From: Chrysomallon squamiferum
Taxonomy: Eukaryota; Animalia; Mollusca
NCBI GenBank assembly: GCA_012295275.1
Contig: CM022677.1
Span: forward strand, 19,468,001-19,532,000
Length of the DNA stretch: 64,000 nucleotides
Direction: 5' to 3'
Below, piece after piece: positions 1 to 20,543 of the stretch. The notes under the pieces were generated by a model. It was not told the DNA's origin. It saw nothing but the letters and a program-made list of their open reading frames with translations, and did not search any database. Numbering within the stretch: the first letter of the stretch is position 1; every line of letters starts with the position of its first letter. Both the position numbers and the translations under genes were made by a program.

Positions 1-1990
1 TAATAATAATAATAATAGTAACAGTAATTATAATAAGAAGAATAAGAAGAATAACAATAATAATAATAATAACAACAATAATAATAGTAATAATATTATA
101 TAATAATAATAATAATAATGTTGATGATGATAATTATGATGATGATAATGAGAAGGAGGAAGATGATGAAATAATGAAAAAGTAACAAATCAAGAACAAA
201 TGAGTTGTTAAATGCTTATTCTGCTTTCGGTTGATGTTACATAATCGATTTAGGAACAATGCGCTCCCCCTCTGAATGTTAGAAAGAAACCAGATGTATG
301 CACAGGCCAAGTTCATTATATACAGAGGTAATCAGGTATTGCGGTAAACCAGATTTTTCTACGAAATGGGAATTATACGAACTGGGAATCTACCAAATGG
401 GAAGACACCGTCGATACAAATGTAAGAACGCTAGGAGCGCTCGCTACCCCTCAGCTCATTCAGTTACCTTTTCTGTACAACTGGAAAGGTCTGACTCTGT
501 TTAAAATGATTATGTTTGCTCATGTTTAAAATAACTTGGCTATGTTTTTCTCCAATGTTCCTGCTTTTAACATACACATTATAGCACCTGTATATCGAAA
601 TCGCTGTAAGTTGTTTCCTACAAGGCCAAATCGCCATATATTTTATATGCAACTAAAAGACCCTGTGTTGTTTTTAATAATTATATTTCTATGTTGGTTA
701 TATTAATAACTTGTAGGATTCATGTTTTATTGTTTTGACTTTTACTTTATATAAGTTCTGAAATAAATGAAGTAACATTTTTTTGCCAATGGAATACATT
801 TTAATTTGACATTTTCACCAAAATGATTAGCATTGCTAACAAGTGGACAGTACATTTCACTCGATTGGGGAAAATGCTGAGCTATCCATAATATTGTGCA
901 TGTGTATTTGCAAACGGGCAAATTTAAAAAAAGAAAAAAAAAAAAAAAATGAAGAAAACAACAAGAGAAAATCCCAAGCAGAGAAAACGAAATACAAGTA
1001 TGGAGTAAGAAATCAAGAACGAAAAATTGAAAATGACTGATTTCTACGAATTACTGACTCTTTCATTTATTTATTTAAAAACAAAAAAAAAGACGTTTGC
1101 AAGAAATAGACATAGATTGAATAGTTCGAGTTACCTAAATGTTTCTGATATACATGTGTAATTACTTATGTCTGTATGTTTCTGTGTGTATGTGTGTGTG
1201 TGTGCGTTTGTGTGTGTGCATACTTGCTTCTGTGCAGGTATATATGTGTGTATCTCTATTCTTGTATGTGTGAGTGTGTGTGTAGGGATGCTTATTTGAC
1301 GCTAAATGATTTTATAACATTTGTGTTCAAAAGAAACCTTTTGTCTCTGTGATAAAAATTAAAATGTCATTTCATTCATAGAAACAGTTGTTTGTGTTTG
1401 TATGCAGCCTTATTTTTATATTTCAACTGGGAATTTTATGACATTTTTGTCCTGGATAGTGTGCTTCGACAGAATTGAAGAATTAATATTAATAAAAATA
1501 AATAAATAAACAGGTCGATCATCACTGATCCGACAGTCACTTAAACTGGTTGGTTCGGTAGTCGGGCACAAATTTTTGATAACATTTGATCTTGCTGCAT
1601 AAACACTGCTAGCATCACTTGCAAACATTGTCATTAATAGGTATTCATTTACTGTTGTATCAGGAATGATGCACTTTAAATCCCAGAGAATTAAAAAGGC
1701 TGTATTTGTTTATGAACTTGTAAAGGGACATGTTACAATACAAATATCATACAGATAAAATTATTGATTATAAATAAAAAATAAACACAATATAAACAAA
1801 TAAAATTGAAAATGAAAGTATTAAAAATTGAATTTTAAAACGTCACTTTGACGTAATGTAGTTAATTAGTTTCTATATTATATTAATAATGTATCGGGTT
1901 CAGGGTTTGCTTACTTAATTATAAAGTGTTTCTTTTTTCATCTTTATTAACAGACTAATTAATGAACCCTGTCTGCTCCGTTTTTCAGAA

Positions 1991-2992
1991 ATGGCCAAGA
2001 GTAGAAGGAAGTCAAGAAAAGAGCTGAATTTCAGGACAAAGCAATGGGAACATTTCCTGTGTGCTCTAACCCCGAAAAGATCGCAAACAGCAGCAGCTTT
2101 CAGGAAAGAATTTCAGGAACCAGAAGATTCTGGCACTTCTCTCATTTACAAAAAAATTTCCAGAATAATGTCTACCGAATACACATTGTTCAAATCTTGC
2201 AACAAGTGGAGTTTAACGGACTTCAGTAAATGCATTGGTTTCCATGATTTAGGAAAACTGAATACTGGGACAAAAGAAGTCACTCTGGAATATTCATTGG
2301 AATCCATTATTAAAGAAAATCTACAAATGTTCCAGATTGGTTCGGAAAGGCCTAATATTGATGACGTCCTCAAGAAAAAGGTCGATGTAAGAACATTTAT
2401 AGACTCCATACTTCGGAAATTATGTACAAATCTAGACTTTGGTGTCAGACTAGAAAACAAACCGGACTCAGGTGATCTTCCCGGTTGCAAGTTTGATTAT
2501 CTAGTCTTTAACCATAGCGGAAAACCGATCGGTTGCGTAGAAACGAAAAAACCTTCCGAAATAAATAGTAAAGCATTTGTTCAAGCAGTCCTCAAACTTT
2601 TTGTTTTACAGAAAATTGCTAGCGAAGAAAACGTCGACGTTAGAAAAGTACCGTTATTCAACATTTTGACAGACGGTCTGAGGTTTGTCTTGCTTCAAGT
2701 AAAAGGAGATAAACTACTGGTGGAACAGAATGAACAAAACAAACTGAAAATTCGTACAGTCAAGGAAGACCTATTGCAGGAACAGAATGAACAAAGTCAA
2801 ACCGATGGAGTCCTGGAATCCATTTACAGGCTGATTCAAACGAGTGTTGACGCATCTGTTGAAATACCACAGACTCGTAATATAAATTCTAGAAATTTGA
2901 AGGGTTTTACCATTTTAAACCTACATTGGATGGATTGGGTGTTTTTACACCAACCTGAAGAATTATTTAGCAGCTGTGAAAGTAGTGATTGA
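1991..2992 (+). CDS. PD-(D/E)XK restriction-endonuclease-fold protein (HsdR-N / CR-REase-like), paralog A, 333 aa, single coding exon
   Basis: Long non-repetitive ORF. Motifs RLE..SGDLPGCKFDYLVF..PIGCVETKK (E..D..ExK), FVQAVLKL helix and PLFNILTDGLRFVLL. Splice acceptor CTCCGTTTTTCAG ends at 1988, 2 nt before the ATG. Basic N-terminus MAKSRRKSRK. ORF conserved in paralog B. Confidence 0.8.
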   Translation: MAKSRRKSRKELNFRTKQWEHFLCALTPKRSQTAAAFRKEFQEPEDSGTSLIYKKISRIMSTEYTLFKSCNKWSLTDFSKCIGFHDLGKLNTGTKEVTLEYSLESIIKENLQMFQIGSERPNIDDVLKKKVDVRTFIDSILRKLCTNLDFGVRLENKPDSGDLPGCKFDYLVFNHSGKPIGCVETKKPSEINSKAFVQAVLKLFVLQKIASEENVDVRKVPLFNILTDGLRFVLLQVKGDKLLVEQNEQNKLKIRTVKEDLLQEQNEQSQTDGVLESIYRLIQTSVDASVEIPQTRNINSRNLKGFTILNLHWMDWVFLHQPEELFSSCESSD

Positions 2993-4030
2993 ATCACTGT
3001 AGTTTTTCTTATGAAAATTTAGTTATTGCAATTGTTGTCTTTTGTGCAGATATTCTCTATGTATCTCTAATGTATTTATCTTAATTTTTTTATTAACATA
3101 CTAAGAGCATTACTAATTATTCAATGGATATAAGTTGCATTAAAATTATTTTACTAAATTTTATATTAATAAATAGTGTTATCTTTATACAGAAAATATA
3201 GTTATATTTTCGATAATAGAAATAAATATCAGATGCTTAATAAATTAATATCCTTGTAATAAACAATGTCAATATATAAATTATTAACTGTGGTTGTAGA
3301 TCCTTTTATTATTTCAGTGAGTGTCTGTGTGTTAAATTATAACATTTATTACCATTCATTTAAATGCAGGCGTTCTTTTGTAGTCTGATTCTATAGGTTA
3401 AAATGTATTTACCAGTTTATAACTTTGGTGATATGGATCTGTGAACAAATATTACACTGTGACTTGCATGTTTTCATATTTTATATTATCATATATTTAA
3501 CATTGTATTATACGTTTGAATGTGCTGTGTACAAAACTCTCGTGTTTGATCACTTATCAAAATGATATGAACTTTGCACTTGTTATCTTTATATAAGTTT
3601 TCACATTTACTTATCTTAACTGATGCATTTTAAAACTAGACATACAGTCTAATCACATGTAAATAAAATATATACAGTGCCAGGTATCCGACATCACAAA
3701 TTTGTGTGCGCAAACCTAAATAACTGGAAACCCTAGATATTTGTATGAAATGTGGCAGACTTTTTTTTGTCCTTTGGTTATCTTGCAGCAGTCGAGTACA
3801 CATGGAAATATCGAACTCCAACATTCTCGTCTGCGAACAAATGAATATTTTGTACATTGGTCAGCAAGAAGCAAAACAACATAAACAGGCTTTATAAGGG
3901 TCAACAATGTTAATTTACTGCTTTTCAAGCGTATATGACTTTGAATCTAGCGCCAGATATGAAGTATGTTCTTTGTCCCCCTCTGTCATTCATACGTACA
4001 AAAAAAAAATAGTTAATAACTGATACAATC

Positions 4031-4685
4031 AAAAACGCGACTAGACACTAAACTACAGATCTCACAGGAGATCTATACACATTTGTTTTAAATTCGGGTG
4101 TTAGAGATCATGTTTCTTCTTTTCTTTATTATCCACGTTCAAGTTAGTTCCATCAAGGACTGATTCACAATAGTCACAGAGGAGGGGAACAGGGCCAGTA
4201 CTGAGCATTCAGTGTGTTTAGTATGAATAAAACGACAAATGTAATTTTGTTTGGAAAATGTTATTATTTATCTATTTATTTACAAGTATTTTAAAACAAA
4301 AATGTATTCTTTGTAGTTTTGTTTTTTCGTTTATTCAGATGATTATAAATTGATGATAAGTAATGTAAGATATTTATAAGTATAATTAAACAACTAAATG
4401 AGTCAAAACAACGAAAGTGAACGTTATACATGAGTAAACAAATAAAATGTAATCTGATTACTATTGTATGTTGTATTTACGTTAGTCTTTAAAAACAGCC
4501 GGTATTTTCAAAACCAGACTAGATGTGAAAGTGGATACATCACTGGAGATCTACTGACACGTGTTTTAAATCCGGGTGTTAGAGATCTTGTTTCTTCTTT
4601 GTTTTACTCTGCACGTTCAAGCTGGTGTGAAAAAAGGGCGAATCACAATAATTACAGAGGAGGATGACAGGGTCGGTACCTACAC
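4031..4685 (+). repeat. Two diverged copies (~4031-4205, ~4510-4685) of a ~175-bp element, also present at ~12843-13022 and ~13326-13505
   Basis: Shared core GACTAGA..GGAGATCT..TTTTAAAT(T/C)CGGGTGTTAGAGATC(A/T)TGTTTCTTCTT..CGTTCAAG..ACAGAGGAG..ACAGGG.C.GTAC. Confidence 0.8.
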
Positions 4686-4689
4686 ACAA

Positions 4690-4744
<55 letters not shown>

Positions 4745-5344
4745 TTACTATTATTATTTGTTGATCTTTTCTTCTTTTTATTTGTTTCTATTTTTTTAAT
4801 TGTTATTTATTTACTTATTTTTCACAATAATAATAACAACAACAACAACAACAACAACATCAACAACAATAAAATAATAATAGTAAAGACTGATATCGTT
4901 TTTCTTGTGAAATTAAATAGTGAGATACATGTTTTATTTAGTCAACTTATAAAATATATATTCTTATAATGTAATGAATTTAACAGTTAATATTATTTAT
5001 TTATTTATTTGTAAGGAAATGAAGCGATAAAATACATAAATCTCAATATTTTTATACATTATTATTATTATTACTACTACTACTCTGTGCACGTGACTAA
5101 AAATCATGCGTTCATTTTCTGTCCCGTTTTCCACTCGTACAGTTTATTTATACCGCCAGTTCACTATTCAAGTTTAAACAAGATATATCTTTGTTCGCGA
5201 AGTGTATTAACTTACACTGTCATTCTAAAAATTATTGTGACAAATTGTGAGAAATATTGTACAAAAGTGATTATTTATTTATTTATTATTAGTATTATTC
5301 TTTTATTTATTTACTTGACTGTCTGTTATTATCCGTTTTTATTT

Positions 5345-5414
<70 letters not shown>

Positions 5415-5687
5415 TTACTGTCGCTTTTTTTAAATTATTTTTATTTTTAATAATGTACACTGCTAGGAGAAACGTGTGGTGGTGTCACTAAAATTATACT
5501 GTGACGTGACACTTCGCAGAAAATAGAAGTGTATGACTTTCAAATTACAGCTATGACAATAACAATAAAAATAATAATACGAGATAATGTAATCTATATA
5601 CACATGTTCTACTTGCATACATACATAGATATATTGACACAGGCACACACACACACACACACAGACACACAGATATACACACACCAT

Positions 5688-5830
5688 CAGCGTACCTTGA
5701 CTTACGAGTGCACCAACTTACGAGTGTTCCGAGTTACGAGCAGTCGCCTGGTCGATTTTCTTGGTTTCAGTTCCGAGCCAAAATCCGAGTTATGATTGAG
5801 CTTCAGATACGCCGCTGGTAGTTGGCACAT
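5688..5830 (+). mobile_element. Terminal fragment of a Tigger/pogo-like (Tc1-mariner superfamily) non-autonomous element; shorter copy at 13748-13823
   Basis: CAGCGTACCTTGACTTACGAGT..AACTTACGAGT..GAGTTACGAGC resembles Tigger-type TIRs with repeated TTACGAG sub-motifs; CpG-rich against the background. No second TIR or transposase seen. Confidence 0.5.
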
Positions 5831-7427: not shown

Positions 7428-7641
7428 ACCGGAATAAGAAAGTGTTATATGACGTCACTGGGAACGTGCGTTAGTTTTTCTTCGTAGCCATTTTTGAAAC
7501 GAAATAAATTGTTTGGAAACTCAAACGAACTTTATGTTTTCGTGTTAAAACATAACATGTCCCACCTACGCTTAAAAGTTTCATTTTAGGCAGTTCAAAT
7601 ATTAAGTAATCTGTAAAATTTGTTCTGAGAATAAGGTAAGT
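7428..7641 (+). promoter_or_regulatory. Candidate TATA-less promoter and non-coding first exon, probably of nuclease gene B
   Basis: ETS-like ACCGGAA (7428), perfect CRE TGACGTCA (7450-7457), YY1-like GCCATTTT (7487-7494), local CpG enrichment, strong donor AAG|GTAAGT after 7635. Confidence 0.55.
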
Positions 7642-8110: not shown

Positions 8111-8387
8111 AAATCAGTCTCTTCCATACAAACGCCATTACTGCAGGAAAACATATATCTGACTTTTCATCCAGTGGAATCCGCCCTTTTAATATATCAA
8201 AAACGTAGAGAGAGAAAAAAAATACGCCTGGAAATTAAGAAGAAAACGTCTGTCTGAAGAAACGAAAGCGAAAGACGCTAGAGCCAGGAAGCACAAGTCA
8301 AAGGAGCAAGGCAGGCACACAACAGGACCAATCCGGAATTGAACAACAATATTTTGCGTTGGGCGCAGGAAAAATCAGTGAAAAACG
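8111..8387 (+). other. Candidate non-coding 5'UTR exon of nuclease gene B
   Basis: Polypyrimidine acceptor TTTCTTTCCATTCCAG ending 8110; donor ACG|GTGAGT after 8387; stops in all three frames. Confidence 0.45.
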
Positions 8388-8428: not shown

Positions 8429-9647
8429 GTCGATACAAATGTAAAAAAGCTAGGAGCGTTTGCTTCCCCTCAACATATTCAGTTACCTTTTATGTACAAC
8501 TGGAAAGGACTGACTCTGTTTAAAATGATTGTTTGTTCATGTTTAAAATAACTTGGCTGTATGTTTTTCTTCAATGTTCCTGCTTTTAATATACACATTA
8601 TAGCTCCTGTATATCGAAATCGCTGTAAATTGTTTCCTACAAGGCCAAATCGCCATAGATTTTATATGCAACTAAAATAATATGTGTTGTTTTGAATAAT
8701 TATATTTCTATGTTGGTTATTTTAATAACTTCTAGGATTCATGTTTTATTATGTTTTGACTTTTACAGTATGTAAGTTCTTAAATAAATGAAGTAACATT
8801 GCTTTGCCGATAGAATACATTTTCACAAAAATGATTAGCATTGCTAAGAAATGGTCAATATATTTGACGAGATAGGGGTAAATGCTGAGCTATCCATAAT
8901 ATTGTGCATGTGTATTTGCAAAGGTGTAAATTTGCACAAAAAGAAGAAAAAATCCCAAGCAGACAAAACGAAATACAATTTCGTTTCCAAGAAGTATTGA
9001 GTAAGAAATCAAGAACGTAAAATTGAAAACTGATTTCTACGAATTACTGATTCTTTCAAACGAAACAAGACGTTTGCAAGAAATAGACGTAGATTGAACA
9101 GTTCGAGTTACCGAAATGTTTCTGATATACGTATGTAATTACTTATTGACACGGATAACAGCAGTAGTTAAGAAATCTTCAAACCTGCTTCGTTTCTGGA
9201 AAATGATCTTGAAAATCCGTACGTGAACGAATAAATTACATCACTTCAGCTTTAGTCAGTTAATTTTGTATCTAATTAGTATATATTACACTTTCTGTGT
9301 GTATGTGCACGTGTGGGTGTGGGTTTCTGTGTGTGTGTGTGTGTGTGTGTGTACTTGTTTCTCTGCAGGTTTATATGTGTGTATATCTATTCTTGTATGA
9401 GTGTGGGTAGGTATGGTTATTTGACGCTAAATGCTCAGTTGGTACAGGAGATACATGTAACTGAATATTTTAATTAAGTATTTTATACATTTGTCTCTGT
9501 GATAAAAATTAAAATGTCGTTTCATTCATAGCAACAATTGTTTGTGTTTGTATGCAGCCTTACGCAAAAAATAATTTAAAAACAAAACCAACAATAATAA
9601 ATAAATAAACAGTTGCATCGTTTAATTTAATGCATATAAATTTGCAC

Positions 9648-9678
<31 letters not shown>

Positions 9679-9933
9679 AAATTGCCATAGAAAGCAAAAT
9701 TTGAATGTGATTTGCTGAAATAGGCAGTAAGATATCTGAAGCATTACGTAGCATTATCTACAAAAAAGATAAACCTAAAATGTCATTCAAAAACGAAACA
9801 CGATTTGAGTTATATAGGAGGGTGTATACTTGTTTTATCGCATTTATTTTTATATTTCAACTGGGAATTTTATGACATTTTTGTCCTGGATAGTGTGCTT
9901 CGACAGAACTGAAAAATTAATATTAATAAAAAA

Positions 9934-9972
<39 letters not shown>

Positions 9973-12097
9973 ACGAATAAATAAATAGGTGGATCTTCAC
10001 TGATCCGGCAGTCACTTAAACTGGTTGCATCGGTAGTCGGGCACAAATTTTGGATAACATTTGATCTTGCTGCATAAACACTGCTAGCATCACTAGGAAG
10101 CATGGTCATTAGTAGGTATTCACTTACTATTGTGTCAGGTAAGATGCACTTTAAAACTCAGATAACTAAAAATTCTGTATTTGTTTATGAACTTGTAAAG
10201 GAACATGATAAAATACAAATATCACACACATAAATTATTTATTATAAATTAGAAATAAACACAATATAAATAAATAAAATTGAAAATTAAAGTATTAAAA
10301 ATTGAATTTTAAAAGGTCACTTTGACGTCATGAAGTTAATTATTTTCATTTTTAGCTGAATAATAATATTGCGATTATTAACTGTCTCTCTGTATCTGTC
10401 TTTTCCTTTATTTCCTCTATTTAAAATATACCTTTAGTGTGTGATAAATAGAAATAGCCTAAATATTTATATCACTTACAAAATAATAATACCGTGTGTG
10501 TGTTGTTTGTAAGTTTAATAAAAATCCTTACATAGAAGTATTAAATCATTGCCAAAACAGCCCTCTCAGTTTGTCACTAATATATATTTTTTAATTTTTG
10601 TATTTATTATACATTTTATCTCTATATTATATTAACAATGTATCGGATTCAGAGTTTTTGCTTACCTATTAATTATAAAGTGTTTCTTTTTTTCAACTTT
10701 ATAAACAAACTAATTAATGAACACTGTCTGCTCCGTTTTCAGAAATGGGCAGGACAAAAAAGAAATCAGATAACAAGATGATTTCGAAACTTGAATTGTC
10801 TGACCTGATCGCAGAGGAAGAAGAAGTTTCCGACCTAAAACGTCAAGATCCAGCAGTTCCTTGCACTTCTCTTATTTACGAAAACTTTGCCACGAGAAAA
10901 GAAAGTAGAGATAAAAATATTAAATCACGGAACAATCCTTGCAGCAAGTGGCATTTAAAGGACTTAAGAATATACATTTATTTGGATGATTTAAGAAAAC
11001 AGGATGAGAGGACAAATGATGTCATTCTGTCCTATTCACTGGAATCCATTATTAATGAAAACCTACAAATGTTCCAGATTGATTCGACAAAGCCTAAGAT
11101 TCGCGATGTCCTGAAGAAAGAGGTCAATGTAAGAATATTTATAAACTCCATGGTTCAGAAATTATGTACAAATCTAAAATTTGGTGTCGAACTAGAAAAG
11201 GAAAGGAAATCAGGTGATCTTCCCAATTGCAGGTTTGATTTTCTGTTCTATAACCATCGCAAACAACCCATCGGATGCTTAGAAACGAAACCATCTTCCA
11301 AAATGAATGATAATGCACTTGCTCAAGCAGTCCTCCAACTTCTTGTTTTACAGCAATTTGCCAGCGAAGAAAACGTCGACGTTACAAAAGTACCGTTATT
11401 CAACATTTTGACAGACGGTCAGAGGTTTGTCTTGCTTCAGGTGAAAGGAGATAAACTGTTGGTGGAACAGAATGAAGACAACAAACTGAAAATTCATAGA
11501 GTCAAGGAACACCTATTGCAGGAACAGAATGAACAAAGTCATACTGATGGAGTCATGGAATCCCTTTACAGGCTGATTCAAACGAGTGTTGACGCATCTG
11601 TTGAAAGACCTCAGACGACTTGACTCGTAACATAAATTCTGGAAACTTGATGGAATTGAGCATTTAAAACCTAAAATTGATAGAATGCTTGTATTAACAC
11701 TAACCTGAAGAATTATTTAGCAGCTGTAAAAGTAGTGATTGAATCACTGTAGCTTTTCTTATAAAAATTTATTTATTGCAATTGTTGTCTTTTGTGCAGA
11801 TATTCTCTCTGTGTCTTTAATATATTTATCTTAATTTTTTTATTAATTTACTAAGAGCATTACTAATTATTCACTGGATATATCATACTAAATTTTATAT
11901 TAATAAATGGTGTTATCTTTATACAGAAAATATAGTTATACATTCGATAATAGAAATAAATATCAGATGCTTAATAAATGTATCTATTAATAAATTAATA
12001 TCCTTGTAATAAACAATGTTTGGCATCGTCAAAATATAAATTATTAACTGTGATTGTAGATCCTTTTATTATTTCAGTGACCCGATTTCAAATGTAT

Positions 12098-12149
<52 letters not shown>

Positions 12150-13823
12150 AATTATAACATTTATTACCATACATTTAAATTCAGGCGTTCTTTTGTGTGA
12201 TTCTATAGTTTAAAATGTATTTACCAGTTTATAACTTTGGTGATATGGATCTGTGAACAAACATAACACTGTGACTTGCATGTTTTCATATTTTTTATTA
12301 TCATATATTTAACATTGTATTATACGTTTGAATGTGCTGTGTACACAACTCTCGTGTTTGATCACTTATCAAAATGATATGAACTTTGCACTTGTTCTCT
12401 TTATATAAGTTTTCATATTTACTTATTTTAATTGATGCATTTTAAAACTAGACATACAGTCTAATCACACGTAAATAAAATATATACAGTGCCAGGTATC
12501 CGACATCACACATTTGTGTGCGCAAACGTAAATAATTGGAAACCCTAGATATTTGTATGAAATGTGGCAGACTTGTTTTTGTCCTTTGGTTATCTTGGAG
12601 CAGTCAATTACACATGGAAATATCGAACTCCAACATTCTCGTCTGCGAACAAATGAATATTTTGTACATTTCTCAGCAAGAAGCAAAACAACATAGGCAG
12701 ACTTTATAAGGGTTAAACAATGTTAATTCACTGCTTTCCAAGCGTATATGACTTTGAATCTAGCGCCAGATATGAAGGATGTTCTTTGTCCCCCTCTGTC
12801 ATTCATACGTACATAAAACAATAGTTAACAACTGATACAATCAAAAACGGGACTAGACATTAAACTACAGATCTCATAGGAGATCTATACACATTTGTTT
12901 TAAATTCGGGTGCTAGAGATCATGTTTCTTCTTTTCTTTATTGTGGACGTTCAAGTTAGTTGGATCAAGGGACTGATTCAGAATAGTCACGGGGGAGGGG
13001 GGAACAGGGCCGGTACTGAGCATTCAGTGTTTTTAGTTTGAAGAAAACGATAAGTTTATTTTTTTTGGAAAATGTTATTATTTATCTATTTATTTACAAG
13101 TATTTTAAAACAAAAATGTATTCTTTGTAGTTTTGTTTTTTTCGTACACTTTTATTCAGACGATGATAAGTTGATGATAAGTAATGTGAGATATTTATAA
13201 GTATAATTAAACAACTAAATGAGTACAAACAACGAAAGTGAACGTTATACATGAGTAAACAAATAAAATGTAATCTGATTACTATTGTTGCATTTACGTT
13301 AGTCTTTAAAAACAGCCGATGTTTTCAAAACGTGACTAGAAGTGAAACTGGATACCCCACTGGAGATCTTATACACGTGTTTTAAATCCGGGTGTTAGAG
13401 ATCTTGTTTCTTCTTTGTTTTACTCTGCAAGTTCAAGCTGGTGTGAGAAAAAGGGCGAATCACAATAATTACAGAGGAGAAAACATACAGGGCCGGTACT
13501 TACACACAAGACATTACGTTATTATTATTATTATTATTATTATTATTTTACTGTCTTTTTTTTTTTTTTGTTAGTTTGTTTTTAATAATTAATATTAAGA
13601 CGTCATACTTCGCAGAACTTAGAACAGTACATAAACAAATCAGTTTCAAATTAACAGATATGACAGCAAAAACGATAAGACGAATAAAATAATACGTGAT
13701 AATGTTATCTATATACACATATTTTACTCACACACACACACAGACAACGTACCTTGACTTACGAGTGAACCAATTTGCGCGTTTTCCGAGTTACGAGCAG
13801 TCGCCTGGTCGATTTTTTGGTTT
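8429..13823 (+). repeat. Segmental direct duplication, copy B; contains nuclease gene B
   Basis: Collinear with 410-5767 at an offset of ~8.0-8.8 kb. Confidence 0.95.
10745..11623 (+). CDS. PD-(D/E)XK restriction-endonuclease-fold protein (HsdR-N / CR-REase-like), paralog B, 292 aa, single coding exon
   Basis: Motifs KKEVNVRIFIN (helix-1 Glu), ELE..SGDLPNCRFDFLFY..PIGCLETK, LAQAVLQL, PLFNILTDGQRFVLL. Acceptor CTCCGTTTTCAG ends at 10742, 2 nt before the ATG. Basic N-terminus MGRTKKKS. Confidence 0.82.
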   Translation: MGRTKKKSDNKMISKLELSDLIAEEEEVSDLKRQDPAVPCTSLIYENFATRKESRDKNIKSRNNPCSKWHLKDLRIYIYLDDLRKQDERTNDVILSYSLESIINENLQMFQIDSTKPKIRDVLKKEVNVRIFINSMVQKLCTNLKFGVELEKERKSGDLPNCRFDFLFYNHRKQPIGCLETKPSSKMNDNALAQAVLQLLVLQQFASEENVDVTKVPLFNILTDGQRFVLLQVKGDKLLVEQNEDNKLKIHRVKEHLLQEQNEQSHTDGVMESLYRLIQTSVDASVERPQTT

Positions 13824-14559: not shown

Positions 14560-16780
14560 ATTTGTAATAAAAGTAAATCAATACCAGTTCTATAATAAAA
14601 AAAGAGAGGAAAACCAGGGAAGATGGAATTATTAAAACACTGAAGTGGTCCTGAAGTGAACACTGTTCACACTGAACCATTGCACTTTTTACCTCTTGCC
14701 CTGACAGATACAATCTTCTTCACTGTTTCTGTCCTTCATTTTGAATACCTCTTGCCCTGACAGATACAATCTTCTTCACTGTTTCTGTCCTTCATTTTGA
14801 ATACCTCTTGCCCTGACAGATACGATCTTCTTCACTGTTTCTGTCCTTCATTTTGAATACCTCTTGCCCTGACAGATACAATCTTCTTCACTGTTTCTGT
14901 CCTTCATTTTGAATACCTCTTGCCCTGACAGATACAATCTTCTTCACTGTTTCTGTCCTTCATTTTGAATACCTGTTACAATCTTCTTCACTGTTTCTGT
15001 CCTTCATTTTGAATACCTTTACGATCTTCTTCACTGTTTCTGTCCTTCATTTTGAATACCTCTTGCCCTGACAGATACAATCTTCTTCACTGTTTCTGTC
15101 CTTCATTTTGAATACCTCTTGCCCTGACAGATACAATGTTCTTCACTGTTTCTGTCCTTCATTTTGACATCAGGTGTCCTTCAACATGCGGCTAAAAACA
15201 AACTGTTTGACATTTCCTCTGTTCTGTGACCATATAACATGTAACCTTTTTTCTATTATTATTATTATTTTTTTTTTTTTTTCATTATTCTGCCAACGAA
15301 GATTTTCTTCAACCATACCATAAGGACCACTTGGTTTAAGACCTCTTTCAATTTCCCCTGGGCATGCACGTCTTTAATACTTACCTATAAGTTTGTAGTC
15401 ATGACCAGAAATATTTTCATTTCAACTTACTTCATGGTAGCTACAAATGCCTCGGACATTACCCCGATCTTCCATCCACATTACATGCAGTTTCTTTCTG
15501 TTCTTCAGGTTATTCGCCATCTTCAGTCTCTTAGTGGCTCTTCCTAGTAGACCATCTTCTTTGTACACGGACAGATTTTTTTCTCCTGTACAAACTGCCC
15601 ATAAATGTTGACTGATCTTTCTGTAGTCCAACTTACTTGTATCACGCTTTTTCTTTTTCTCATTTGAAATCTTCTTCTCTCCACCTTCATGATTAACATT
15701 CTGCAACACAACAGAAGTAGATTTGTATGGGGGGAAAGAAGAAAAGAAAAAGAAAGTGATTTCCTTGACCATGAGTTACATTTAATACAGTCAGTTTTAA
15801 TCAAGTTGAAATTTTTCCTTTTCTGCAGTCAAAGCTGCTCAGAACATAACTAATGTAACAATAGATAACACATTTTTGTTTCAGTGTTTCTTAAATCAAA
15901 TTTGATGAAAACAATTTCATCTGTATTTATTATATGTGGATGAAAATAATACTTACTTTACTTACATACAACATAATTTTAGCTTGTAAATAAACAGTAT
16001 TTACTCCCAGATCAAGTCCCATCAGACTGAAAAACAAATTTATAATTTCACATGTTTGTTTCTAGGAAATGAGAAACTTTAAGAAAAACAGAAACAATTG
16101 TTATACTGCTACACCCAGTAAAATGCACTAAAAAAGATATAAATAAATGAATGGCACTGAAGAATGTAAATGTTTTTCATAATTCTCTGAGTCAGTCTAA
16201 ACATATGTATACAGTGATAGAATGAGAAATAAATGAATGGATGATAAAAGAATAAAATTAGATAGAAAGATAGAAACACATATACACAAAAAAAAAAAAA
16301 AAAAAACATTTTACATGTGTATATATATATATATTGTGAGAATGAACTAGTAAAGTCTGATGCTACATTGTCAAGAAGTATTTTCTTTTAAGAAATATAA
16401 AATATCTTTTAACAATACTGCATGGTATTAGTGACTCACGTTTCAGTATTTGACAACAAACTTTGGTTAGTAGGAACCAAAACAATGTTTAAATAAATAA
16501 TCATTTCAAGCATTAACTTGTAAATTAAAAAAGACAACAACAACAACAACAACACAAAAAAACCCTTCCAAAACAGTGCAACTTAAACCTGTATTTTTCA
16601 TAAAGTGTACATGAATCATGTATAATCAACATTAGATGAAAAAAAACTTTAGAATAATAATAAAAACAAGTACAGCCATATAAAGACTAATGTATTTCTG
16701 AAGTGTAAACTTTAATATTTATACTTTATTATTAATTTTCATTTGCTGGCAAAAAGAAAAAACATAAAAATAAAAATAAA

Positions 16781-19216: not shown

Positions 19217-19536
19217 ATGAGTTTTCTTCACCTTGTAGAAAAACTGTTAATAACTTTGACTTTGGAAATATGTCTGCTCGCAACATGTTTATTTGGAGAC
19301 ACCATTATCTCGATTTTATCACCTACCAGGTCAAACGAACCGGATTTATTATGGATGCGCGCAGTCGTTGATAGTGCTACGCATGGTTTCGTGGCTTTTT
19401 TTTCGTGGGCTATTGTCGAATTGACATCATTAGGTGACATAAATGCGATAACTTTTATAAACTGCGGTATATGTGCTGGACTTGCAGTGATGGTTGATTT
19501 GGATCACTTTATGGCAGCCAGGTCGTTCCATATTAA

Positions 19537-19537
<1 letters not shown>
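19217..19537 (+). CDS. TMEM267: Transmembrane protein 267, coding exon 1
   Basis: RAVVDSATHGFVAFFSW and AVMVDLDHFMAARSFHIK match TMEM267 (human RALSDNAVH..SW, SVIDVDHFFLAGSMSLK); phase-0 donor AAG|GTGAGA. Confidence 0.93.
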
Positions 19538-19615
<78 letters not shown>

Positions 19616-20077
19616 GTATTCATTTAAATCATAAGAAATAATTATATTTATATATTGATAAGAGAGAGAGAGAGATTGTATATCGAAATGAGAAAAGAAG
19701 AGAAAAGTAAAAATAACAGATGAAAATAATAAAAGTTACTGTTTTATGTTATGTAATTAAAACAAAAATATTTAAATGTTATTATGTGGTTACTTATTTG
19801 AATAGTCACTTTTAAGTTTCAAAGTCTGTTATGAATTTAGTAATCTAGTAAAAACTTAGAAGTATTACTATCCAGTAAATAAACAAATAACAATTTTATT
19901 TGTTAATTTGTTAATTAATCATCATCATTTTATTATTATTATTATTATTACTTCTTAGTAAAAGGTTTATGATTGAATATTTGTGTGTGTGTGTGTGTGA
20001 TGATAACTTTTAATATTTGTTTTATAAAATCAGGAAGGATTAATTACTAGTATTAATTATTTAATACTAAAAATAAA

Positions 20078-20122
<45 letters not shown>

Positions 20123-20240
20123 ATAATAATAATAATAATAATAACAACAACAACAAAAAACTAAATTTCACTAACAACATACATCCAACATTTAATAAAC
20201 ACAAATTAATTTTTTAATTTTTATTTTTTTTGTTTTATAG

Positions 20241-20543
20241 GATGCTATGAACCTTAGCAACAGGCCTCTTTTCCATGCAACCACAGTGATTCCAACCATC
20301 TTCTTCCTGCTCATCATCTGTGGACAAGTTCTGAAATCAAACAGGCTGAAATATCTTTCTTTTATATTTGTCTTATCTTGGAGTTCTCACCACGTAAGAG
20401 ATGCCACGAGGAGAGGTTTGTGGTTACCTCCCTTTGCCAGCTCTCCACCTATCCCGTACGCTATGTATGTATTTCTGATAATGTTTTTACCTTTGTGTGT
20501 CAGAGGCGTTATTAAGTTTTTGGGTGTGTGGGAGATTTTGTGA
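20241..20543 (+). CDS. TMEM267: Transmembrane protein 267, coding exon 2 (spliced protein 207 aa)
   Basis: Acceptor TTTTATAG|GAT; RPLFHATTVIP and SWSSHHVRDATRRGLWLPPF match human RPFLHCSTVIP and [20 protein letters not shown]. Confidence 0.93.
   Translation, partial: DAMNLSNRPLFHATTVIPTIFFLLIICGQVLKSNRLKYLSFIFVLSWSSHHVRDATRRGLWLPPFASSPPIPYAMYVFLIMFLPLCVRGVIKFLGVWEIL

Follow-up and report, generated by a model that had tools for sequence, protein, structure and literature searches.

Restriction-type nucleases are a type of bacterial defence enzyme, and their fold recurs in chains of the mitochondrial ribosome that are conserved, non-catalytic proteins. The fold of the PD-(D/E)XK superfamily is defined in PMC3424549, according to which a Glu of the first helix often completes the active sites and the Pro preceding the catalytic Asp is replaceable. 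In DrdV, one of the type I/IIG restriction enzymes, the site consists of E25, D64, E79 and K81 (bioRxiv 10.1101/2021.01.06.425610). Eukaryotic restriction-fold proteins, among them the Crinkler/CR effectors and fungal stand-alone enzymes, are placed in the context of conflict in PMC5289972. For tandem gene pairs, the red and green opsins offer a comparison, as PMC3924837 describes a peak of coding divergence between flanks that have stayed similar.

The locus studied here lies in a window of 64,000 nucleotides of AT-rich, microsatellite-rich animal DNA from Chrysomallon squamiferum (GCA_012295275.1, CM022677.1, 19,468,001 to 19,532,000, forward strand), and all positions below are those of this window. 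It holds two copies, A and B, which we find to be real, expressed duplicates of a restriction-fold family without a name. An animal family of stand-alone proteins with the active site of restriction enzymes, arranged in tandem and probably positively selected, is a candidate for an invertebrate DNA defence or for a selfish element. Moreover, a natural pair in which one copy has the full predicted site and the other is without the Glu of the first helix makes activity and specificity directly testable.

Organisation and expression of the duplicated genes

Self-blastn of the window reveals one direct duplication with units of ~5.4 kb (Table 1), each containing a single long coding exon, and the self-comparison found no third copy of the gene within the 64 kb. 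An 8-nt indel at 2871 shifts the stop codon between the copies, and the derived 39-residue tail of A is a read-through of the former 3' UTR after this indel.

Table 1. Positions of the features in the window (units, exons, splice sites and blocks of the coding exon)
Feature	Position	Strand	Basis or count
Duplicated unit A (intron, coding exon, 3' UTR, downstream DNA)	410..5767	+	self-blastn, alignment
Duplicated unit B	8429..13823	+	self-blastn, alignment
Copy A coding exon, 333 aa, predicted PD-(D/E)XK fold	1991..2992	+	
Copy B coding exon, 292 aa	10745..11623	+	
Splice acceptor AG, two bases 5' of the ATG of A	1987..1988	+	contig junction in X1 and X2
Splice acceptor AG of B	10741..10742	+	
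Predicted non-coding exon 5' of B (preceded by AG, followed by GT, without ATG)	8111..8387	+	
N-terminal helix of A, residues 9-26, with the family WxxFL motif	2015..2068	+	
Fast-evolving gap-free block, codons 70-210	2198..2620	+	59/141 codons amino-acid-changing, 8/141 silent
Lys130 of A, aligned with the Glu of the first core helix (B 11120-11122)	2378..2380	+	
D169...E184-T-K186 motif of A, retained in A and B (B 11237-11290)	2495..2548	+	
Slow C-terminal block, codons 211-291	2621..2863	+	9/81 codons amino-acid-changing, 5/81 silent
Divergent island, coding tail in A, 3' UTR in B	2880..2960	+	19/81 columns differ

Sequencing reads of four of the nine listed runs were mapped to 200-3500, and what follows is based on 40 of the 287 rows of variants and on 32 of the 499 assembled pieces. 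Runs X1 and X2, whose library type is not on record, were taken as DNA by a guess from their index; X9 is on record as RNA. Both X1 and X2 yield one 902-nt contig with no difference from A over 1988-2673 and with an additional 216 nt at the 5' end that resemble the end of the predicted exon upstream of B, and most bins of the A intron are without read depth in these two runs. The contigs can be read as spliced transcripts of A, and one of the two runs may come from the assembled individual. Since the spliced loose end of A is similar to the 3' end of the exon upstream of B, the own upstream exon of A likely lies before the start of the window.

The second copy is likewise represented in the reads. 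B-type pieces differ from A at 67, 62 and 55 positions in X1, X2 and X4, where B of the window predicts 66, 62 and 55, and contigs of A-type and B-type occur together in all three runs. X9 contributes a 163-nt piece of A along with a 1120-nt contig of a third paralogue. This third paralogue is found over 2475-2730 in X1, X2, X4 and X9, is located outside the window, has letters of its own at several sites and retains an ancestral strand-1 motif that A and B have lost. The A contig of X4 displays six differences over 1590-2673, and the five that can be placed are L12Q, R15W, T16A, T94P and I191M. The tail region of A (2880-2992) is variable in the reads, with a 6-nt deletion at 2919 and substitutions at 2943 and 2969; by contrast, X1 and X2 show no variation over 1988-2673 of A.

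Pseudogenes, or an assembly artefact in which haplotypes were joined, could be suspected from two features, namely that neither protein matches a Pfam family above the cut-off and that the C-terminal tail of A stems from 3' UTR. However, A is present in spliced contigs without a single difference in two samples, its frame and that of B are preserved, and the two types of contig co-occur in three runs, so that this explanation is already largely refuted and highly improbable.

Divergence along the coding exon

The preliminary description of this DNA had claimed that the coding sequence diverged faster than the flanking non-coding DNA, and segment-wise distances bear this out. The K2P distance between A and B amounts to 0.61 for codons 1-69, 0.33 for codons 70-100, 0.21 for codons 101-210 and 0.07 for codons 211-292, compared with 0.116 upstream. 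Overall, protein-changing differences are ~2-3 times as dense as differences in silent and flanking DNA. Decay of CpG sites was considered as a cause of the coding excess and rejected, as 17 of 99 coding differences and 25 of 218 flank differences fall on CpG. The broad extent of the peak (~210 codons), its mostly non-synonymous make-up and silent sites near the depth of the flanks set it apart from the opsin-like peaks.

The same description had the flanks align almost base for base. This is true of the end of the intron (6 of 77 columns differ) and of the 3' UTR (14 of 264), with the exception of the first 81 nt past the stop codon of B, an island that is 23% diverged (K2P 0.28). The flanks are moreover of unequal depth (P = 2e-8), with 142 of 1323 clean columns (10.7%) differing upstream and 76 of 1502 (5.1%) downstream, and the upstream flank includes an identical run of 87 nt that is longer than expected by chance (P = 0.006). 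Taken together, the unequal flanks, the identical run and the diverged island indicate that age along the duplicated unit is not uniform and that some gene conversion or uneven age is likely.

Two further statements about the coding exon need to be revised. The first ~40 residues, which had been regarded as unalignable, do align as DNA, with a score of 44 against 16 ± 7 for shuffled sequences and none of 500 shuffles as good; identity over these 40 codons is ~55-60%, and the N-terminal gaps of 15, 9 and 12 nt are all in frame. Nor do the replacements cluster around the catalytic strands. From codon 70 to 209 the amino-acid changes per 20 codons number 11, 9, 5, 8, 7, 9 and 10, followed by 1, 2, 3 and 3, and predicted strands carry the lowest share (9 of 44 positions, compared with 30 of 93 in helices and 29 of 85 in loops).

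Selection on the two copies

Selection was tested with our own codon-model code rather than codeml, on two sequences only and from several starting points. The count of 28 amino-acid-changing and 7 silent codons among the 86 codons from YSLESII to ETK is exact, but as an excess it does not hold, because a neutral simulation at matched depth with the mutation spectrum of the flanks gives 28.2:7.1. The ω of this stretch is 1.12 by NG86 and 1.5 by maximum likelihood (CI 0.7-3.5), which is not significant. An ω above 1 with both frames open, as first proposed for these 86 codons, is supported instead by the wider block of all 222 gap-free codons. Here 68 codons change the amino acid and 13 are silent, and ω reaches 1.92-2.15 with a dS of 0.094-0.099 under three frequency models (P = 0.010-0.028). 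Allowing double-base changes leaves ω at 2.04 (P = 0.022), and fixing κ at the flank value of 1.38 lowers it to 1.73 (P = 0.062).

Within the wider block, the two parts of the protein display distinct behavior. Codons 70-210, a block whose boundary was picked by eye, have an ω of 2.3-3.0 (P = 0.002-0.003 for values of 2.8-3.0; 2.9 with double-base mutations allowed), with a dN of ~0.3 and a dS of ~0.10-0.12 that is similar to the upstream flank. For codons 211-291, ω is ~0.5-0.6. A pairwise two-class model with ω above 1 is preferred over M1a at P = 0.0009, or 0.007 with κ fixed to the flanks. At the depth of the upstream flank, 13.0 silent codons are expected and 13 are observed, whereas 68 amino-acid changes are observed against 47 expected (none of 600 runs as many). 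Fourfold sites differ in 5 of 34 and 8 of 59 cases, which is not lower than in the flanks. More conservative treatments weaken the signal: simulation at matched depth gives P = 0.06 for codons 70-210 and 0.15 for codons 70-291, and removal of multiply changed codons leaves ω at 2.0 (P = 0.07) and 1.5 (P = 0.24). Changes affect 8 of 32 family-conserved columns and 56 of 156 columns elsewhere, an avoidance that is not significant (P = 0.31).

Many charge-swapping replacements had been noted in the 86-codon stretch, and neutral simulation shows them to be in excess, both for charge changes (18 of 28 vs 11.1, P = 0.0035) and for charge reversals (6 of 28 vs 1.1, none of 2000 runs). For codons 70-210, the charge-changing share is 34 of 59, compared with 20.6 of 55 in the simulation (P = 0.001). 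Meanwhile, the ~870 nt of coding sequence have accumulated no frameshift, where 7.5 are predicted from an indel rate of the flanks that is itself inflated by microsatellite indels (P = 0.0006), and no stop codon (P = 0.01). Derived states are evenly shared, with 21 in A and 20 in B. All five placeable coding differences of the A allele in X4 change a residue, which alone is not significant (~0.3), and the 5:0 ratio of these displayed A polymorphisms gives no McDonald-Kreitman excess.

An alternative account of the pattern invokes a mosaic of ages. The duplication would be older (~0.25 changes per site), conversion would have refreshed both flanks as well as the C-terminal third, and in their N-terminal two-thirds the redundant copies would have drifted at an ω of ~1. 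A dS of 0.245, fitted under ω = 1, is indeed similar to the K2P of the tail island, and the unequal flanks, the identical upstream run, the two read variants of A that carry the letter of B (2563 and 2943) and the loss of four conserved residues in A all fit such a history. The likelihoods point the other way. A better fit is obtained with one age and two ω classes (dS 0.09-0.11; ω 2.6-3.3 and 0.5-0.6), which exceeds two ages with ω no higher than 1 by 4.4 and 2.9 lnL units, and a free model is preferred over the capped two-age model at P = 0.003 and 0.014. Only 8 silent codons are found where the mosaic leads one to expect 12.6 (P = 0.06), the excess of charge changes together with the intact frames rejects pure drift, and PMC3924837 describes a divergence peak that survives conversion as a signature of selection. 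The neutral version with an older island is thus disfavoured (P = 0.003-0.014; 0.06 by simulation), and we consider the mosaic of ages unlikely as a whole.

As the outcome that would speak against selection, the preliminary description had named an old coding divergence, held under purifying selection beneath converted flanks. The maximum-likelihood dS of 0.09-0.12 disagrees with this case, and because even the two-age account needs ω to be at 1, a coding sequence under plain purifying selection between converted flanks does not describe the data. We consider it probable that positive selection drove the N-terminal two-thirds of A and B apart.

A lophotrochozoan family of restriction-like proteins

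Relatives of A and B allow the changes to be placed against a family background. Neither copy matches a Pfam family above the cut-off, including HSDR_N and HSDR_N_2, and in a family scan of 69 representatives sub-threshold HSDR_N matches occur in 15. Of 30 relatives looked up, 13 are named, and all of these are lophotrochozoan (Gigantopelta, Haliotis, Pinctada, Saccostrea, Argopecten, Owenia, Lingula and Lineus), so that the family ranges over molluscs, an annelid, a brachiopod and a nemertean. The closest named relatives are five paralogues of Gigantopelta aegis on one 81.6-Mb scaffold, and a tree of 21 selected sequences pairs A with B as sisters (100/99), both with long branches. A fast core combined with a slow C-terminus is also displayed by two of four Gigantopelta paralogue pairs (61/85% and 78/89% identity); the two pairs that include sequence P0004 are without this profile (92/72% and 77/74%), and a Haliotis pair shows 95% and 93%.

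The family layout comprises a WxxFL helix at the N-terminus, a variable linker, an SxW...Y motif and a core with the motifs E...R, LP, D, GxxExK, QAxxQ and TDG. In P0005 of Haliotis cracherodii, the WxxFL helix and the next motif are instead located in the last 50 residues, i.e. at the C-terminus, which amounts to a natural circular permutation and suggests that helix and motif pack on the core. An internal repeat with copies 57 nt apart at 2717-2790 (B 11459-11532) encodes LLxEQNEQ twice in both A and B and is not present in the Gigantopelta relatives.

The predicted models of the two proteins are confident (pLDDT 82 for A and 81 for B, pTM 0.82). The model of A contains helix 130-148, strands 151-156, 168-173 and 179-185, helix 193-212 and strand 222-227, and, as far as a prediction can tell, it and its matches conform to the fold definition of the PD-(D/E)XK superfamily. 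A chain of the mitoribosome is its best match of all (Z 13.6, rmsd 3.5, 200 residues aligned), followed by DrdV (7LO5; Z 13.0, rmsd 2.7, 140 aligned), BpuSI (3S1S; Z 12.4, rmsd 3.6, 151 aligned), a second mitoribosomal chain (Z 12.2) and HsdR (3H1T; Z 9.3). Other searches yielded little: sequence searches of solved structures returned nothing, or only HsdR at E = 1.3, a Foldseek search of the PDB had nothing at E <= 0.001, and in a viral structure library the matches were weak and of a generic PD-(D/E)XK kind (best E 6e-4, TM ~0.25).

As the best match is mitoribosomal, the fold alone is no proof of nuclease activity. The mitoribosomal chains (3J7Y chain 5 and 7A5F chain s3, which we take to be mL37 and mL65) rank among the best scores and have the longest aligned stretches (~200 residues), at 9-10% identity; unlike them, the family of A and B is multi-copy, fast evolving and keeps the catalytic motif. 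One could therefore think of a non-catalytic binder of nucleic acid or protein, in which the fold serves as a scaffold and a surface for a partner, with no link to defence, is what selection acts on. Two mitoribosomal chains among the top matches and the tolerance of A for the loss of its helix-1 Glu would agree with this. The conservation of the site residues, however, fits catalysis better than scaffolding: D is kept in 72 of 72 relatives, E and K each in 71 of 72, and the site residues including Q in 70-72 of 72. We regard a mere binding role for the family as quite unlikely.

The predicted active sites of the two copies are not equivalent. The preliminary description held that D and ETK were kept in both, which is correct for D169, E184 and K186 but incomplete, given that A has Lys130 in place of the helix-1 Glu of the family. 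This acidic residue is present in B (E126) and is Glu in 68 of 72 relatives, and the X1 and X2 contigs of A, identical to the window, confirm its replacement. The full predicted site of B reads E126-D165-E180-K182-Q194, and its E-D-E-K spacing of 39/15/2 equals that of DrdV, a match by spacing rather than by a printed structural alignment. In A and B the predicted catalytic Asp is preceded by Phe, not Pro. Besides Lys130, A departs from conserved sites by S71N, Y81C and Q202K; the departures of B are D138N, L141V and Y170F (numbering of A). B has further lost the WxxFL motif, and its model is unconfident over residues 1-60 (pLDDT 37-66), compared with 88-95 over the helix of A.

A and B resemble the nuclease domain of type I/IIG enzymes through the predicted fold, the spacing of E...D...ExK, the sub-threshold HSDR_N matches and the neighbourhood in the Atlas, where fungal clusters without names rank at the top (0.95-0.96) and bacterial HSDR_N clusters follow at 0.93. 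By the tests applied here, they are members neither of a restriction-modification system nor of the Crinkler effectors. In contrast to those enzymes, the family is animal, intron-containing and stand-alone, shares 10-15% identity with them and adds the WxxFL helix and the SxW...Y motif. The Pfam matches of the 69 relatives include no methyltransferase, helicase or target-recognition/specificity domain, apart from one sub-threshold RNA-methyltransferase match in the linker of a relative, and no methyltransferase, helicase or specificity domain is evident among the window ORFs of at least 90 aa. A weak search for longer fused forms, covering 5638 candidates of 1379-3935 aa, found none. Similarly, the ubiquitin-like or LXLFLAK header, NTPase and kinase of Crinkler/CR effectors are missing from the family; neither A, B nor the 69 relatives have a Crinkler Pfam match, and Crinkler clusters reach only 0.79 in the Atlas.

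Pattern scans confirmed no relative among 97 viral, 200 + 30 metagenome and 18 prokaryote candidate stretches, which leaves a viral or bacterial donor unsupported. A description of the family was not found in the paper titles and beginnings of abstracts searched, and Zhang et al. 2016 may list the family.

Proposed roles of the two copies

These features can be combined into a tentative mechanism for the tandem duplicates, which are ~10% apart at silent and upstream sites and encode a stand-alone protein with a predicted restriction-endonuclease fold. Positive selection likely split their N-terminal two-thirds in the course of a genetic conflict, in which the likely task is defence against invading DNA, with the C-terminal third apparently staying under purifying selection. 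With its full E-D-E-K site, B is likely the active copy, a DNA endonuclease that depends on metal. A has Lys instead of the helix-1 Glu and has lost three further conserved residues; it is likely impaired or inactive and would have been retained as a binder, a decoy or a regulator. The WxxFL helix, retained in A and lost in B, likely lies against the core and adjusts activity. Changes of the charged surface would follow a target or inhibitor that belongs to a virus, a mobile element or a symbiont, and the arms race over target specificity that was suggested at the outset would be one form of such a conflict, as far as the sequence lets us infer. For the whole chain, from the conflict role to a likely active B and a likely impaired A, we see the chances of its being right and wrong as evenly balanced.

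A more far-reaching version would have the lophotrochozoan stand-alone restriction-like nucleases act as an innate restriction factor or a selfish element, with B as an active cutter de-repressed by the absence of its header helix, A as its dead partner and both racing an antagonist. We hold this version to be possible, if rather doubtful.

The tight linkage of the copies and their complementary losses would also suit a selfish toxin-antidote or drive pair, in which B is a nuclease that harms unprotected gametes or embryos and A a linked, catalytically impaired antidote that co-evolves with it. Fast change on both branches is consistent with such a pair, and restriction-fold toxins are described for eukaryotic conflict systems in PMC5289972. 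Yet the family is old, is spread over four lophotrochozoan groups and retains the Glu in nearly all relatives, and we assign to a toxin-antidote pair the same low probability as to the binding scaffold.

Other features of the window

Several additional elements surround the two genes. A high-copy repeat at 230-420 in the intron of A has no counterpart in unit B, and its summed depth in X4 rises to at most 2460, compared with ~40 nearby. The 3' part of both units contains an older internal duplication of 170 nt, 73-79% alike, at 4032-4202/4510-4679 in A and 12844-13017/13327-13500 in B. A candidate promoter and first exon of B is located at 7440-7640, with a GCCATTTT motif that is presumably YY1-like and a donor GTAAGT at 7636. 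Further downstream, a two-exon gene at 19217-20543, whose single exons have no Pfam or PDB match, resembles what we take to be TMEM267/C5orf28. Between the duplicated units and this gene lies a minisatellite (14690-15167) of near-identical copies with a period of ~56 nt.
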